In this document: positions 4,280 to 9,711 of the stretch, in pieces
Numbering within the stretch: the stretch's first letter is position 1
Layout: each line of letters starts with the position of its first letter
NCBI GenBank assembly: GCA_040905425.1
Contig: JBBDRO010000092.1
Location: forward strand, 3,894 to 18,791
Direction of reading: 5' to 3'
From: Gemmatimonadota bacterium
GTDB lineage: Bacteria; Gemmatimonadota; Gemmatimonadetes; Longimicrobiales; RSA9
Length of the DNA: 14,898 bases
Notes under the pieces: model-generated
Databases searched by the model: none
What the model saw: only the letters and a program-made list of their open reading frames with translations
Told to the model about the DNA's origin: nothing
Position numbers and translations under genes: made by a program

Positions 4280-5155
4280 ATGCGACGTCCCCTCGTCCTG
4301 CTGCTGGCGCTCGTCCCGTTCCTGGCCACGCCCGCCCTCGCGCAGGGCAACCTCATCATCGTGGGCGGCGGCGGCCGCCCCGACACCATCATGGGCAAGT
4401 TCGTGGAACTGGCCGGCGGCCCGGGCGCCAGGATCCTGGTCATCCCCAACGCCAGCGCCAACGCGGAGGGAGCGGGCGAGAGCCAGGCGGAGGGCCTGCG
4501 CCGCCTGGGCGCCGATGCCTCCTTCGTGGCGCTCGACGCCGCTTCCGCCGATGACCCGGCCGTGCTGGAGCGCTTCGAGGGCGTGACAGGTGTGTGGTTT
4601 CCGGGCGGGGTGCAGAGCCGCCTCATGGACGTCATCGGCGGCACACGGGCAGCGGACGCCATCCGCCAGGTCTACACCCGGGGCGGTGTGGTGGGCGGCA
4701 GCTCGGCCGGCGCGGCGGTCATGACCACGCCCATGATCACCGGCGGGGAGAAGCGTCCCGCGCGGGAGGATGATGACTGGAACATCATCGAGCGGAACAA
4801 CGTGGAGTGGGCCGACGGGCTGGACCTGCTGCCCGACGCCGTCGTGGACCAGCACTTCGTCCGCCGCAAGCGCCACAACCGGCTCATGAGCCTGGCCATG
4901 GAATACCCCGACAAGGTGGGCGCCGGTATCGACGAGGCAACGGCCATCTGGGTGAAGGCCGACGCCACGTGGGAAGTGCTGGGCCGCAGCGTGGTGGTGA
5001 TCTACGACGCCCGCCCCGCCAACGTGTCGCCCGATCGGCTGCCGCTGGGCGCCGCCAACATGCGGCTCCACGTGCTACCGCACGGCGGCATGTTCAACCC
5101 CGCCACGGGCGCGGCCATCATGCCGGGGGGAAGCGTGCCGGTGAAGCGCTTCTGA
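4280..5155 (+). CDS. Cyanophycinase (peptidase S51) with N-terminal signal peptide
   Basis: Motifs LIIVGGG, WFPGGVQ, GGSSAGAAVM (nucleophile Ser), DQHF (His) and GIDEAT (Glu). GGAGG RBS at 4266-4270. Signal peptide MRRPLVLLLALVPFLATPALA. Confidence 0.88.
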   Translation: MRRPLVLLLALVPFLATPALAQGNLIIVGGGGRPDTIMGKFVELAGGPGARILVIPNASANAEGAGESQAEGLRRLGADASFVALDAASADDPAVLERFEGVTGVWFPGGVQSRLMDVIGGTRAADAIRQVYTRGGVVGGSSAGAAVMTTPMITGGEKRPAREDDDWNIIERNNVEWADGLDLLPDAVVDQHFVRRKRHNRLMSLAMEYPDKVGAGIDEATAIWVKADATWEVLGRSVVVIYDARPANVSPDRLPLGAANMRLHVLPHGGMFNPATGAAIMPGGSVPVKRF

Positions 5156-5162
5156 GGCAGCG

Positions 5163-5211
5163 ATAGATTGATAATATTCAAATAGATTGTTAAATCTGGG
5201 ATAGATTGCTA
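5163..5211 (+). repeat. Three direct repeats ATAGATTGNTA at an exact 19-bp period
   Basis: ATAGATTGATA at 5163-5173, ATAGATTGTTA at 5182-5192 and ATAGATTGCTA at 5201-5211, within a strongly AT-rich intergenic stretch. Confidence 0.92.
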
Positions 5212-5222
5212 CATTTCGCGTA
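5187..5222 (+). promoter_or_regulatory. Sigma70-like promoter giving a probably leaderless transcript of the ATPase gene
   Basis: TTGTTA at 5187-5192, a 17-bp spacer, extended -10 TG at 5207-5208 and TACATT at 5210-5215. The ATG at 5222 lies 7 nt after the -10 box, and no Shine-Dalgarno precedes it. Confidence 0.65.
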
Positions 5223-6406
5223 TGGATCCCCTCCGAAACCCCTTCGCTCCCGGCGCAGGCAGTCGCCCGCCCGAACTCGCGGGCCGGGAGGAAATCATCC
5301 AGTCTGCCCGCATTGCCCTGGCCCGGGTGCGGCTCAGCCGCCCGGAGAAGAGCCAGATGCTCCTGGGATTGCGGGGCGTCGGGAAGACCGTGCTGCTCAC
5401 CCGTATTGGAGAAATGGCCGAGGAGCAGGGCTATCTCGTGGCCATGCTGGAGGCCCCCGAAGGTCAGAGATTAGCAGAGTACCTGGCCCCAGGGCTGAAG
5501 AGTGTCCTGCTGCAGCTGAGCCAGGTAGAAAGAGCCAGGGATTTAGCGAATCGCGCTGCGGCTGCACTCAGAGGCTTCGCCAGCGCCTTCAAGGTTACCA
5601 TTGGGGACGTGGAGATCGGCGTCTCAGAGCCGCCGACCGCCAATAGCGGAAATCTCGATATCGACCTCCCTGAGCTTCTGCTCGCAACAGCAGCAGCGGC
5701 CAGGGCGGCAGAGAGCAGTGTTTGCATCTGTATTGATGAGGTTCAGTATCTCGGAGAGGAAGACCTCCGGGGTCTAATCGTTGCCCTGCACCGCATCTCA
5801 CAGAAGGGACTGCCGCTCATTGTGTTCGGCGCGGGGCTGCCCCAGGTGGCCGCACTTGCAGGCGAGGCAAAATCATACGCGGAGCGCCTCTTCGACTATC
5901 CGGATGTCGGCCCGCTTGCCGCCGACGCCGCGCGAAGCGCGGTCGAGGAACCGGTAAGGCACGAGGGCGCCTCGATCGAGGGCGACGCACTCGATTATGT
6001 GGTCGAGGTGACGGAGGGTTATCCGTACTTCCTGCAGGAGTGGGGAAAGCACACGTGGAATGCCGCAGGCTCCTCACCGATAACCGCAAAGGTCGTCGCC
6101 GCCGCGAGCCAGTCGGCGATCAATGCACTCGACAACAGCTTCTTTCGAGTCCGTTTTGATCGTCTTACCCCACGGGAACAGGACTACCTGCGCGCGATGG
6201 CCGACCTCGGCCCAGGGCCGCACAGATCTGGAGCCATCGCGGAGCGGCTCGGCAGGTCCGTTGAAAGCATGGGCCCCCTCCGCAGCGGCCTGATCAAGAA
6301 GGGGATGATCTGGAGTCCCGCACACGGCGACACCGCCTTCACTGTGCCCATGTTCGATGGCTTCATGAAGCGAGCAATGCCGGCATGGGGTGATCCCGCG
6401 CTCTAG
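5222..6406 (+). CDS. AAA-family P-loop ATPase (AAA_16/archaeal-ATPase-like) with probable C-terminal winged helix
   Basis: N-terminal NPFAPGAG...LAGRE, Walker A GLRGVGKT, Walker B ICIDEVQ and TEGYPYFLQ. The C-terminus LTPREQDYLRAM...SGAIAERLGRSVESMGPLRSGLIKKGMI is wHTH-like. Many A/T-ending codons compared with the neighbours. Confidence 0.88.
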   Translation: MDPLRNPFAPGAGSRPPELAGREEIIQSARIALARVRLSRPEKSQMLLGLRGVGKTVLLTRIGEMAEEQGYLVAMLEAPEGQRLAEYLAPGLKSVLLQLSQVERARDLANRAAAALRGFASAFKVTIGDVEIGVSEPPTANSGNLDIDLPELLLATAAAARAAESSVCICIDEVQYLGEEDLRGLIVALHRISQKGLPLIVFGAGLPQVAALAGEAKSYAERLFDYPDVGPLAADAARSAVEEPVRHEGASIEGDALDYVVEVTEGYPYFLQEWGKHTWNAAGSSPITAKVVAAASQSAINALDNSFFRVRFDRLTPREQDYLRAMADLGPGPHRSGAIAERLGRSVESMGPLRSGLIKKGMIWSPAHGDTAFTVPMFDGFMKRAMPAWGDPAL

Positions 6407-6702: not shown

Positions 6703-9700
6703 ATGAGCCCCACGCACACGCCCCACCCCCCACAGCGCTGGCCACTCTCCCTGATCGCTCCGGCCGCCCTGGCCGCCCCGGTTGCTCTGGCCGCCCTAAC
6801 AGCCCTGACCGCCCTGACCGCCCTGACCGCCCTGACCGCCCTGACCGCCCTGACCGTCCTCACCGCCGCCCCCGCCCACGCCCAGCAGCGTTCCGGCGCC
6901 CTCACGGCCGCCACCCTGGACGAGCTGGCCTTCCGGGAGATCGGCCCGGCGGTGACCGGCGGGCGCATCCACGACGTGGAAGCGCTGCCCGAGGACCCGT
7001 CGGTGGTCTACGTGGCAGCGGCCTCGGGCGGCATCTGGAAGTCGGAGAACATGGGCACCACGTGGACGCCCATCTTCGACGACCAGCCGGTCTCCACCTT
7101 CGGTGACATTGCCATCGCGCCGAGTGACCGGCAGGTGATCTGGGCGGGCACGGGCGAGCAGAACAACCGGCAGAGCACCTCGTGGGGCAACGGCGTCTAC
7201 CGCTCCGCAGACGGCGGCGCCACGTGGACGCATCTGGGCCTCGAGGAGACCCGCCATATCGGCCGCGTGCGCGTGCACCCGACCGACCCCGATGTGGCGT
7301 GGGTGGCGGCGCTCGGCAACCTGTGGGCGCCCCACCCGGAGCGGGGCGTCTTCAAGACGGACGACGGCGGCGCGAGCTGGCGGAAGACGCTCTTCGTGGA
7401 CCAGAACACGGGCGCCGTGGACCTGGTGCTCGACCCCTCCAACCCGAACGTGCTCTACGCCGCCGCGTACCAGCGGCAGCGGCGCGCCTGGGGCTACAAC
7501 GGCGGCGGCCCCGGCAGCGGCATCTACAAGAGCACGGACGGCGGCGAGAGCTGGAGCGAGCTGACCAACGGCCTGCCGGTGGATGACATGGGCCGCATCG
7601 GCCTGGCCATCGCGGAGTCCAGTCCCAACATCCTGAACGCCATCGTCGAGACGTCGGATGACGCCACCCAGGGCATGTATCGCAGCGAGGACGCCGGCGC
7701 CACCTGGACGCGGGTGAACGAGCTGAACGCCCGGCCCTCCTACTACAGCCACATCTACATCGACCCCAACAACCCGGAGCGCGTCTATTCGCTGGCGGTG
7801 TCCTTCTACAAGAGTGAGGACGGCGGCCGCAGCTGGCGCACCATGCCCACGCGCCAGCAGTATGACGTGGGCGTGCACAGTGACTTCCACGCCCTGTGGA
7901 TCGACCCCAACAACTCCAAGCACCTCATCCTGGTGGGAGACGGCGGCGTCTACCAGAGCTGGGATATGGCGGAGCACTTCACGCGCGTGAACAACGTGCC
8001 GGTGGCGCAGGCCTACGGCATCGGCGCCGACGGCCGGGACCCTTACTACCTCTACGTGGGGCTGCAGGACAACCACTCCTGGCAGGGTCCCAACGCCACG
8101 CGCCACTGGATCGGCATCCTGGGGGACGACTGGCAGCAGATCGGCTTCAGCGACGGGATGTACCACCAGGTGGATCCCATGGACCCGGAGAACGCCCACT
8201 ACGTCTTCAGCAACAACGAGAACGGCGGCTACACGCGCGTGGACGCCTTCACCGGAGACATCCTGAACATCCGGCCCCCCAACGTGGCCGGGGAGCGGAG
8301 CCGCTTCGACTGGGTGGCGCCCTCGCTGCTGTCCCGCCACGACCCGCGCGTCTTCTACGCCGGCGGCAACCGCCTCTTCATCTCGCGGGATCGGGGCAGC
8401 TCGTGGAGCTGGACCGAGGACCTGACCCGCCAGATCGATCGGGACACGCTGGCCATCATGGGCGTGCTCGGCGCCGACATTGCGCACTCCAGGAACGACG
8501 GCACCTCCACGCACAGTGAGATCGTCACCATCGCGGAGAGCCCGCTGGACGGCCGCATCCTCTGGGTGGGCACCGATGACGGCAACATCCAGATCTCGCG
8601 CGACGGCGGAACCACCTGGAACGAGGTGTCCGGCAGCGTAAACGGTGTGCGGAACGGCACCTACGTGAGCCGTGTTCATGCGTCCCGCCGCTCGCCGGGG
8701 ACCGCCTACGCCACCTTCGACGCGCACCGGGACGGGGACTTCCGCCCCTACGTCTTCCGCACCACGGACTTCGGCGCGTCGTGGGAGAACCTGAGTGGCG
8801 GCTTGCCGGACGGCGCCGGCTCGGTGAACGTGATCGCCGAGCATCCGGCCAACTCGGAGGTGCTCGCGCTCGGCGCGGAGCACGGGCTCTTCGTGAGCGG
8901 AGACGCGGGCGCCACCTGGCTGCGCTACGGCGGCGGGCTGCCCACCACGCTCTACGACGACCTCCTCTTCCACCCCAGGTACCACGACCTCATCGTGGCC
9001 ACGCACGGGCGCGGCGTGTGGATCCTGGATGACGCCCGCCCGCTGACCATGACCCGGGCCATGGCCCAATCGGCCGCCCACCTCTTCCCCATCCGTCCCG
9101 CCACCACCTTCCACAAGTGGAAGGACACGTCCTATCGTGGACAGGACATCTGGACGGGAGAGAATCCGCCCGAGGGCGCCATCATTACCTACACTCTGGG
9201 CAGCGCCGCCCCCGAGGCCACGCTGACCATCACCAACGCCGTGGGCCGCACGATCGCCACGTTGGAAAGCGACGACGCCCCGGGCGTTCATCGCGTGATC
9301 TGGGATCTGCGCCACGCCATGCCCGGCGGGCGCGGGGAAGGCCCCTTCGTCATGCCGGGCACCTACACGGTGACGCTCGCGGCCGGCGGTGCCACGGCGC
9401 GCCAGCAGGTGGAGGTGCGGGGGGATCCGGCCGTGGCGGTGAGCGCCAGCGACCAGGCCGAGCGGGAACGCTTCTTCACCGCCATCCTGGACCTCATGGC
9501 CGCGGCCGAGGCGCTGGCCCCCCGCGTGCAGGACGAGGAGCTGGCCGACCGCCTGCAGGGCGCGGCGCGCGACGCCTCACGCCTCATCGGCACCTACATG
9601 GGCAGCGGCGTGCGGCCGGGCAGCATGTACCCGCCCACGCAGACCCACCTGGACGCGCTGGCGGAGGCGCGCGCGGAGGTGGACGCGGTGCGGCGCGCGG

Positions 9701-9711
9701 TGGGCGGCTAG
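6703..9711 (+). CDS. Secreted BNR/Asp-box (VPS10/sortilin-like, GH74-like fold) beta-propeller protein, putative glycosyl hydrolase
   Basis: ATG 6703 with GGAGA RBS; signal peptide ending PAHA. N-terminal FREIGPAVTGGRI. Repeated S/TxDxGxxW boxes (SADGGATW, TDDGGASW, STDGGESW, SEDAGATW, SEDGGRSW, SRDGGTTW, TTDFGASW, SGDAGATW). C-terminal Ig-like WDLR...PGTYTVTL and helical tail. Confidence 0.87.
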   Translation: MSPTHTPHPPQRWPLSLIAPAALAAPVALAALTALTALTALTALTALTALTVLTAAPAHAQQRSGALTAATLDELAFREIGPAVTGGRIHDVEALPEDPSVVYVAAASGGIWKSENMGTTWTPIFDDQPVSTFGDIAIAPSDRQVIWAGTGEQNNRQSTSWGNGVYRSADGGATWTHLGLEETRHIGRVRVHPTDPDVAWVAALGNLWAPHPERGVFKTDDGGASWRKTLFVDQNTGAVDLVLDPSNPNVLYAAAYQRQRRAWGYNGGGPGSGIYKSTDGGESWSELTNGLPVDDMGRIGLAIAESSPNILNAIVETSDDATQGMYRSEDAGATWTRVNELNARPSYYSHIYIDPNNPERVYSLAVSFYKSEDGGRSWRTMPTRQQYDVGVHSDFHALWIDPNNSKHLILVGDGGVYQSWDMAEHFTRVNNVPVAQAYGIGADGRDPYYLYVGLQDNHSWQGPNATRHWIGILGDDWQQIGFSDGMYHQVDPMDPENAHYVFSNNENGGYTRVDAFTGDILNIRPPNVAGERSRFDWVAPSLLSRHDPRVFYAGGNRLFISRDRGSSWSWTEDLTRQIDRDTLAIMGVLGADIAHSRNDGTSTHSEIVTIAESPLDGRILWVGTDDGNIQISRDGGTTWNEVSGSVNGVRNGTYVSRVHASRRSPGTAYATFDAHRDGDFRPYVFRTTDFGASWENLSGGLPDGAGSVNVIAEHPANSEVLALGAEHGLFVSGDAGATWLRYGGGLPTTLYDDLLFHPRYHDLIVATHGRGVWILDDARPLTMTRAMAQSAAHLFPIRPATTFHKWKDTSYRGQDIWTGENPPEGAIITYTLGSAAPEATLTITNAVGRTIATLESDDAPGVHRVIWDLRHAMPGGRGEGPFVMPGTYTVTLAAGGATARQQVEVRGDPAVAVSASDQAERERFFTAILDLMAAAEALAPRVQDEELADRLQGAARDASRLIGTYMGSGVRPGSMYPPTQTHLDALAEARAEVDAVRRAVGG
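6793..6864 (+). repeat. In-frame 9-bp tandem repeat (GCCCTGACC) encoding Ala-Leu-Thr in the signal peptide
   Basis: Six perfect copies at 6802-6855, plus degenerate copies GCCCTAACA (6793-6801) and GTCCTCACC (6856-6864). Confidence 0.95.

Follow-up and report, generated by a model that had tools for sequence, protein, structure and literature searches.

Closest described systems

Archaeal Orc1/Cdc6 initiators bind repeated DNA sites, the origin recognition boxes (ORB, 20-35 bp), beside their own genes. DnaA, an AAA+ protein of the initiator clade, uses its C-terminal DNA-binding domain to bind short repeated boxes in the dnaA promoter, where repression is nucleotide-sensitive, and autorepression is typical of the iteron/Rep systems of plasmids. 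Here we compare with these systems a locus of a Gemmatimonadota bacterium (assembly GCA_040905425.1), found in a stretch of 14,898 nucleotides of contig JBBDRO010000092.1 that was analysed as a whole and is called the window from here on. It consists of three tandem repeats directly upstream of the gene for an orphan AAA+ ATPase. We propose, with moderate confidence, that this ATPase would repress its own promoter through the array, so that the three repeats would serve as promoter-operator to a cassette of one gene, self-contained and spread by horizontal transfer.

The family to which the ATPase belongs resembles archaeal Orc1/Cdc6 (2qby, 2v1u, 1w5s/1w5t) in its AAA+ base, lid and C-terminal winged helix, and in having repeated, oriented DNA sites directly beside the gene. 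It differs from them in being bacterial, in scoring below the cutoff of TIGR02928 (orc1/cdc6; 17.6 vs. 181.3 bits, with the match limited to residues 16-69), in its sub-sites of ~10 bp as opposed to the much longer ORB boxes, in the lack of a linked MCM or helicase partner and in the coincidence of the array with the gene's own predicted promoter. A precedent for promoter binding and for carriage by mobile elements does exist among the archaeal proteins: one study documents that Orc1/Cdc6 homologues bind promoters as regulators, both in archaea and in a provirus of haloarchaea, with S. islandicus Orc1-2 and Orf8 of the SNJ2 provirus as non-initiator regulators (PMC10123103). PAB2304 (2qen) and SSO1545 (2fna), solved members of PF01637 (ATPase_2, "archaeal ATPase"), are also top structural matches of the window protein, from which they differ by a sequence identity of 16-18% and by a PF01637 score that does not reach the cutoff (17.7 vs. 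33.2 bits). In the literature outside subscription-only papers we found no papers naming PAB2304 or SSO1545, so that these two proteins give no guidance on function, and no description of the bacterial ATPase family.

The autoregulation of dnaA is the closest analogy for the mechanism that we propose, although the DNA-binding domain and the sites are others, and DnaA is an essential core gene whereas the window gene is accessory and apparently transferred, with an array that is clade-specific. Plasmid iterons resemble the array in that the window has three tandem direct repeats, with a period (19 bp) within the range of ~17-22 bp, just upstream of the gene of a winged-helix protein. Unlike in iteron systems, no Rep family was matched in Pfam or NCBIfam, the flanking genes (cyanophycinase and a BNR-repeat protein) are of chromosomal housekeeping type, the plasmid contexts of homologues are heterogeneous and most members of the family have inverted, not purely direct, arrays. 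As for the STAND/NLR proteins (NRC4, RPP1, CED-4, Apaf-1), the window protein has neither a sensor repeat nor an effector domain, as it ends after the winged helix, and its best structural matches are of the ORC (origin recognition complex) and PF01637 types, not NLRs.

A prediction made earlier from the letters of this DNA (the original prediction) had interpreted the locus as a module with iteron- or operator-like repeats read by an AAA+/winged-helix ATPase. This interpretation is supported in part. The module, the phased repeats and the winged helix, in an Orc1/Cdc6-like fold, have held up; the term iteron has not, since no gene of a Rep family is present and the context is not consistently that of a replicon.

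The repeat array and its predicted promoter

The features of the array and of the gene that follows it are the following.

5163-5173, + strand: repeat 1, ATAGATTGATA, from the sequence; its 3' part and the next bases read TGaTAATAT (5169-5177), by inspection a second extended -10-like element
5182-5192, + strand: repeat 2, ATAGATTGTTA; it holds the -35-like TTGTTA (5187-5192) and the left arm of the palindrome at 5184-5197
5201-5211, + strand: repeat 3, ATAGATTGCTA; it overlaps the predicted extended -10, TGc-TACATT (5207-5215), which ends 6 nt before the ATG
5163-5219, + strand: whole array, three 19-bp units, from the sequence; a block in common with loci L108, L110 and L109
5156-5221, no strand: AT-rich intergenic region of 66 bp (GC 0.348), from the stop codon of the cyanophycinase gene to the start codon of the ATPase gene
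5222-6406, + strand: gene of the 394-aa AAA_16 / Orc1-Cdc6-like ATPase (Pfam, alignment and model)

The three repeats are identical at 10 of their 11 positions and start at 5163, 5182 and 5201, 19 and 19 bp from start to start, exactly as originally described. The full 11-mer reads ATAGATTG[A/T/C]TA, where ATAGATTG is the 8-mer core. Within each 19-bp unit the strong ATAGATTG sub-site is followed, ~8-9 bp on, by a weaker TA-rich one (TAATAT, TAAATC and TACATT). The region between the two genes (5156-5221) contrasts in GC content with the window, for which the value is 0.697. That this would be the only strongly AT-rich stretch of the window is confirmed by the lowest-GC 60-bp stretch, which starts at 5163 (GC 0.28; the next lowest is 0.47), and in the whole genome (4.12 Mb, 70.5% GC) a GC of 0.30 or less is found in just 85 regions. 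The palindrome AGATT-GTTA-AATCT, which had also been pointed out before, is indeed present at 5184-5197 and is seen as a 5-bp stem in the predicted fold. The 81-nt fold of the repeat region was no better than that of shuffled sequences (z +0.21), and Rfam has no family for it, the sole match with E <=1 being spurious (E 0.5, 16.8 bits vs. a gathering score of 160); on these grounds a structured DNA or RNA was dropped as an explanation.

A shuffle test of the array (<=2 mismatches) gave a result that is weak taken alone, with 3 sites vs. a mean of 0.99 in the shuffles and at least 3 sites in 13 of 200 of them; despite this, all three sites are exact and evenly spaced. One further exact site exists in the whole genome, for which ~0.3 exact sites would be expected (a hand estimate from base composition), and the only same-strand clusters of ATAGATTG (<=1 mismatch, within 60 bp) are this array and a pair with 1 mismatch on contig C4. 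The array motif is not a genome-wide regulon signal: the exact site (on contig C78) and the pair on C4 are both at chance level, and the idea of a regulon was dropped. The additional ATAGATTGATA is located outside the window at C78:88444-88454 (minus strand), with a GC-rich hairpin on one side and, on the other, the start of an open reading frame (ORF) whose product begins like a signal peptide. The C4 pair, also outside the window (C4:860-1010), is found in an AT-rich spacer that holds a near-palindrome, which could be a damage-response operator; judged by eye, the ORF pair that precedes the spacer is VapBC-like and the ORF that follows it Y-family polymerase-like.

By inspection of the sequence, TTGTTA in repeat 2 is followed by a 17-nt spacer, TGc-TACATT, 6 nt and the ATG at 5222. 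The repeats overlap in this way the -35 and the -10 of the ATPase's own gene, in a promoter that is predicted, with 8 of 12 positions as in the consensus; the placement, with the -35 in repeat 2 and the extended -10 overlapping repeat 3, is the one given by the original prediction. The start codon is secure: in an alignment of 95 homologues M1 is invariant and the NPFxPGAG block at the N-terminus is conserved. Since the -10 ends 6 nt before the ATG and no Shine-Dalgarno sequence precedes it, the mRNA is probably leaderless. Across the family, 36 of 103 loci, like the window, lack a Shine-Dalgarno sequence and have a TAnnnT hexamer whose end is 4-9 nt (mode 6) from the start codon. Most close relatives of the window have, instead, a promoter-like unit ~70-110 bp upstream and a leader with a Shine-Dalgarno sequence, the window representing a compact, probably leaderless arrangement.

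Conservation of the array in close relatives and in the family

For the analysis of close relatives we have used 17 non-redundant loci with proteins at least ~67% identical to that of the window, three of them from metagenome-assembled genomes (MAGs) named Rhodocyclaceae, Planctomycetales and Chromatiaceae. Left out of the set were five exact duplicates and, with identities of <=65%, L123, L124/126, L130 and L132. With up to 1 mismatch, ATAGATTG appears 27 times in the 3.4 kb upstream of these genes (200 bp per locus), always on the + strand and in 14 of the 17 loci, vs. 19 times in the 79.6 kb of the rest of the same loci. The densities are 7.9 and 0.24 per kb, i.e., the motif is ~33-fold denser upstream. 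L108, L109 and L110 carry ATAGATTGATAAGAT-N4-ATAGATTGCTAC, which can be aligned with the array of the window. Pairs at a distance of 19 bp recur in these three loci and in L125, and units ~54 bp apart in five of the loci in the set. To judge from these sequences, the array motif travels with the ATPase gene across hosts named from different phyla.

Beyond the close relatives, nearly every homologue is preceded directly by an AT-rich stretch of 60-90 bp built of short repeats. We have counted 7-mer pairs (direct ones with <=1 mismatch) in 89 upstream regions of 100 bp from homologues of many phyla, two near-duplicate pairs being kept, and in dinucleotide shuffles of them. There were 1257 direct pairs vs. 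760 +/- 31 in the shuffles, and 1514 inverted pairs vs. 767 +/- 36. The spacing of the direct repeats peaks at 9 bp (128 observed, 18 shuffled), 10 bp (229 and 18), 19 bp (60 and 15), 20 bp (111 and 14) and 30 bp (42 and 13), a positive outcome for the search for phased repeats upstream of homologues that had been proposed as a check. In the usual layout, direct sub-sites, two or three in number and ~10 bp apart, precede a short AT-rich centre, and inverted copies, again two or three, follow it. A dyad above the 95th percentile of the shuffles was found in 38 of 104 non-redundant loci (median centre at -42, span from ~-68 to -12, ~56 bp), and the inverted arms reach up to ~33 bp in L077. The window, which has no dyad, is a direct-repeat variant of this family array, its 19-bp period corresponding to the second harmonic of the family phasing; L075, with seven direct copies, is also a direct-repeat variant.

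The ATPase and its recognition helix

Three regions of the protein are relevant here.

5366-5389, + strand: Walker A, GLRGVGKT, residues 49-56 (alignment)
5735-5740, + strand: Walker B, D172-E173 (alignment)
6170-6340, + strand: C-terminal winged helix, ~residues 317-373 (predicted structure)

The protein matches Pfam AAA_16 (PF13191) with 52.6 bits vs. a gathering cutoff of 32.6, over residues 18-201. Searches of NCBIfam and single-sequence searches of the PDB gave nothing past generic AAA matches. The AlphaFold model, made with the 95-sequence alignment, is confident (pLDDT 94.1, pTM 0.91), and the top Foldseek match of the model is the DNA-bound Cdc6/Orc1 of S. solfataricus (2qby_A, E 3.6e-10); human ORC4 is matched by the family profile (E 3e-6). 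The predicted fold is Orc1/Cdc6-like, with an AAA+ base, a lid and a C-terminal winged helix. Walker A (G49-T56) and Walker B (D172/E173) are invariant in the 95 sequences. The last ~60 residues form the winged helix, with a conserved framework (R335, R354, K360-G361-M362 and the wing), and the start of the recognition helix (residues 345-351) is variable among homologues.

When the loci are ordered by the protein tree, the sequence of the array follows the clade. In one pattern, noticed post hoc, Glu348, at the start of the recognition helix, goes together with arrays rich in AAGAT/TAGAT, with a mean of 3.1 motifs per 150 bp vs. 0.6-0.75 for Thr, Gln, Ser and Asn. At a threshold of 2 motifs, 19 of the 20 loci with Glu348 are positive and 11 of the 75 others. 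In a tree built without the helix columns Glu348 changes at least 5 times, and there are 4 independent pairs. The motif changes in the same direction in a mean of 3.4 of them and in none in the reverse direction. The covariation of recognition helix and array sequence is suggestive only.

Spread of the family

The family is very large. More than 595 loci are present in species-representative genomes, with many phyla named in the record titles, and a profile search gave 2,251 clusters at 50% identity with E <=1e-30. The protein is strongly conserved: among the matches listed, identity is 45-79% across the phyla named in the titles. Nearly all members of the family have 380-410 aa and no added domains, and the annotation, where there is one, is just "ATP-binding protein" or "AAA family ATPase". 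The distribution among the relatives of the window is patchy: a match was found in 12 of 60 other genomes, some of them with 3-4 copies (G015, G016 and G018 are part of this tally, as rows without a match, and also of the cyanophycinase synteny check, as three rows). The closest intact relatives among the matches listed (70-76% identity) belong to MAGs named Rhodocyclaceae, Chromatiaceae and Planctomycetales and to metagenome contigs. The ATPase gene has a GC content of 0.634, and its GC at third codon positions (GC3) is 0.722 vs. 0.87-0.93 in the four upstream genes. Together, the patchy distribution, the closest relatives across phyla and the odd GC3 point to horizontal acquisition of the gene. 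A homologue was found on 120 of 72,556 plasmid records and in 1 of 50,697 phage records; a phage origin was dropped on account of the latter figure.

The closest protein among the matches listed (79%), in a MAG named Gemmatimonadetes (L032), is 5'-truncated and has lost roughly the first 120 residues and the array. This copy is probably a decaying remnant, and as the truncation includes the array, its conservation could not be read from it. Genome G043 has two near-identical copies of the gene with near-identical arrays ~6 kb apart (L010 and L022), one of them with an in-frame TAG, and elsewhere a third, divergent paralogue (L025) with a different array. The cyanophycinase orthologues of the relatives are <=53% identical and their synteny with the BNR gene is lost; the empty-site comparison gave no insertion boundary.

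Genomic context of the cassette

No neighbour gene is conserved: the largest cluster of neighbours spans 6 of ~112 loci and is a generic ABC ATPase. The notion of a module made of one ATPase gene plus its array fits with this. A Pfam scan covered 125 of the 151 nearest-neighbour ORFs, and the genes were heterogeneous. Most of those with a match are housekeeping or metabolic genes, many have no Pfam match and a few are restriction-modification, integrase, RHS, helix-turn-helix (HTH) or TraG genes.

The cassette is placed in very diverse sites, some of them within conserved pairs of housekeeping genes. In a MAG named Acidobacteriaceae (L088) it is inserted between pheS and pheT, with both flanks confirmed by Pfam, and in another (L085) PheT is found downstream, and the frame on the upstream side has the same terminal peptide as PheS in L088. 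In three Acetobacteraceae (L090, L106 and L107) it lies between carA and carB; L106 and L107 have no AT-rich array, the ATPase gene starting directly after carA. In L013, L031 and L042 a second type of orphan ATPase (AAA_14 + DUF4143) adjoins the cassette.

Type I restriction-modification genes, whose flank is a known slot for passenger genes, flank homologues in L014, L015, L065 and L098 (shared neighbour clusters) and also in L041 and L052; by Pfam, the ORF upstream of the homologue in L014 is confirmed to be of the HsdS type, and the one downstream in L015 of the HsdR type. The original prediction had contemplated a defence sensor. What speaks for it is that restriction-modification genes flank a few loci; on the other hand, PADLOC-DB v2.0.0 has no match to the ATPase at E <=0.001 (the best, E 0.003, are Cas3 and mad8 fragments). 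Gene context gives weak support to a role in defence.

Seven plasmid contexts were inspected. Six are accessory regions with insertion sequence (IS) elements, toxin-antitoxin and tra genes, and one is beside parAB. The latter is on plasmid pPO70-3 of Pandoraea oxalativorans (L208; 75 kb, without a PLSDB replicon type), where the homologue is divergent from the parA-parB pair, a position often held by the gene of a replication initiator. Since only this context out of seven is beside parAB, the idea of a plasmid Rep protein was dropped.

The window's own flanking genes, both of them outside the module, are listed below.

4280-5155, + strand: cyanophycinase gene (TIGR02069), the upstream neighbour (family match)
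6704-9711, + strand: gene of a secreted BNR/Sortilin-repeat protein, the downstream neighbour (Pfam; likely start ATG 6704)

The BNR/Sortilin ORF was listed from 6406, and its true start is likely the ATG at 6704, which has GGAGAG just 5' of it and leaves a spacer of ~300 bp after the ATPase gene. The N-terminus has a stretch similar to a signal peptide and a tandem ALT/LTA repeat. In GC3 (0.661) this gene is as unusual as the ATPase gene, and it may also be foreign.

A proposed self-repressing cassette and its alternatives

A way to bring these observations together is a promoter built into the repeats, with the -35-like TTGTTA in repeat 2 and the extended -10 TGcTACATT in repeat 3, from which transcription would start at or beside the ATG and yield a leaderless mRNA. 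The ATPase would read the phased sub-sites through its winged helix, aligned along one face of the DNA, as the 19-bp period is close to two helical turns (the family norm being 9-10 bp). Cooperative assembly over the -35 and the -10 would occlude the RNA polymerase and shut off the gene's own transcription, and this self-repression would keep the level of ATPase fixed in any host reached by the cassette. That ATP would control the assembly is suggested solely by the AAA+ fold with its intact Walker motifs. Negative feedback, added to an mRNA without a leader and an AT-rich promoter of its own, would make expression independent of the host, as would suit a gene that moves between phyla. As no partner gene is conserved and the array travels with the gene, the binder should be either the ATPase itself or a universal factor such as the RNA polymerase.

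Several observations weigh against self-repression. The sub-sites resemble sigma-70 elements (TTGnTA and TGnTAnnnT), so that the RNA polymerase could be the universal binder behind the conservation across phyla. The promoter, with its 8 of 12 consensus positions, is below the threshold (9/12) of a promoter scan, which called 0 sites. A Shine-Dalgarno sequence, hence an mRNA that is not leaderless, is present in 29 of 103 loci, and these include most of the closest relatives of the window, with a leader of ~70-90 nt. The window itself lacks a dyad, with at most 3 inverted 7-mers sharing a centre vs. a 95th percentile of 6 in the shuffles, and the homologues L045, L106 and L107 have no array at all. 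Regarding the recognition helix, the 4 independent pairs are too few for significance (median p 0.25), and the trait (E348 with AGAT) was picked post hoc, after seeing the data. The original prediction had suggested looking for a covariation between repeats and recognition helix, for which the analysis gives the clade-specific array and the Glu348 pattern, with these four pairs as independent comparisons.

The main rival of the self-operator is a promoter and nothing else, in which stacked sigma-70 elements and phased A/T tracts would make a strong, host-independent and perhaps curved promoter with no dedicated repressor. By inspection, each unit reads TTGnTA / TGnTAnnnT and with the 19-bp period the -35-like box of a unit and the -10-like box of the following one are 17 nt apart; in other clades the sub-sites are TATAAT-like, and the 10-bp phasing of A/T-rich words in the upstream regions is shown by intrinsically bent promoter DNA as well. 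We nevertheless regard it as rather unlikely. The conserved ATAGAT core does not coincide with consensus positions of sigma-70, the 10-bp units are identical over their full length within a locus, bases with no role in a promoter included, but differ between clades, many loci have long inverted arms (such as those of L077) that a promoter does not need, and close relatives have units within the presumed 5' leader. More doubtful is a bacterial counterpart of an ORC with its origin boxes that would do actual work on DNA. The ATPase would polymerise on the phased, oriented sites in an ATP-dependent way, and the assembly would serve to sense foreign DNA or keep it out, or else to promote the spread of the cassette, autoregulation being a by-product. 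In the first form it would be a one-gene switch for immunity or incompatibility, with "immunity groups" that are clade-specific, in the second it would spread between conserved housekeeping genes; the doubt applies to both forms jointly.

The other explanations are less likely than the self-operator. One that we consider improbable is a site similar to an origin or to iterons, where the ORC-like protein would melt or remodel DNA for replication or mobilisation, the chromosomal copy being a relic. The fold and the inverted arrays around an AT-rich centre beside an initiator-like gene, a layout similar to archaeal ORB/origin regions, would agree with it, as would the presence of the gene on plasmids and the one copy divergent from parAB. 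The AT-rich centre is, however, just ~8-19 bp long, the neighbour scans gave no linked gene for a helicase, a loader or a Rep protein, six of the seven plasmid contexts are accessory regions, many copies lie between housekeeping genes (pheS/pheT or carA/carB) and the array always abuts the start codon, as would be the case in a promoter-operator. An operator for another transcription factor, encoded elsewhere by the host and controlling the foreign gene, ranks just after it. Host silencers commonly act on AT-rich promoters of foreign genes, and the additional exact site on C78 is upstream of another gene; yet hosts named from different phyla have this motif together with the gene, and it is absent from the rest of the window's genome save for that extra site. 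In addition, genomes with several copies carry a distinct array per paralogue, as in G043, where L010 has an array of the AGTTAG/CTAACT type and L025 one of the TCGTAGTAAAC type, which argues against a single host regulator. The least probable explanation, already disfavoured, is a functionless local duplication by replication slippage in an AT-rich spacer. Short tandem repeats arise easily, and neither the fold nor Rfam gave a signal, but relatives with a protein identity of only 67-76% to that of the window keep the motif, its strand and its spacing, and phased repeats are found family-wide.

Significance

The array of the window would be, then, a clade-specific direct-repeat variant of a family-wide promoter-operator on a mobile Orc1/Cdc6-like ATPase gene. 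As such, it would belong to a known kind, in which an AAA+ protein that binds DNA is autoregulated and has ORC-like repeats next to its gene. The proposal is made directly testable by three features in combination: a single gene that brings a putative promoter-operator along, an apparent covariation of helix and array, and insertion even in pheS/pheT and carA/carB. If borne out, one protein and ~60 bp of DNA would be a minimal system in which to study the reading of phased sites by an ORC-like AAA+ protein in bacteria. The question that it poses is why so many bacteria keep such an ATPase gene.

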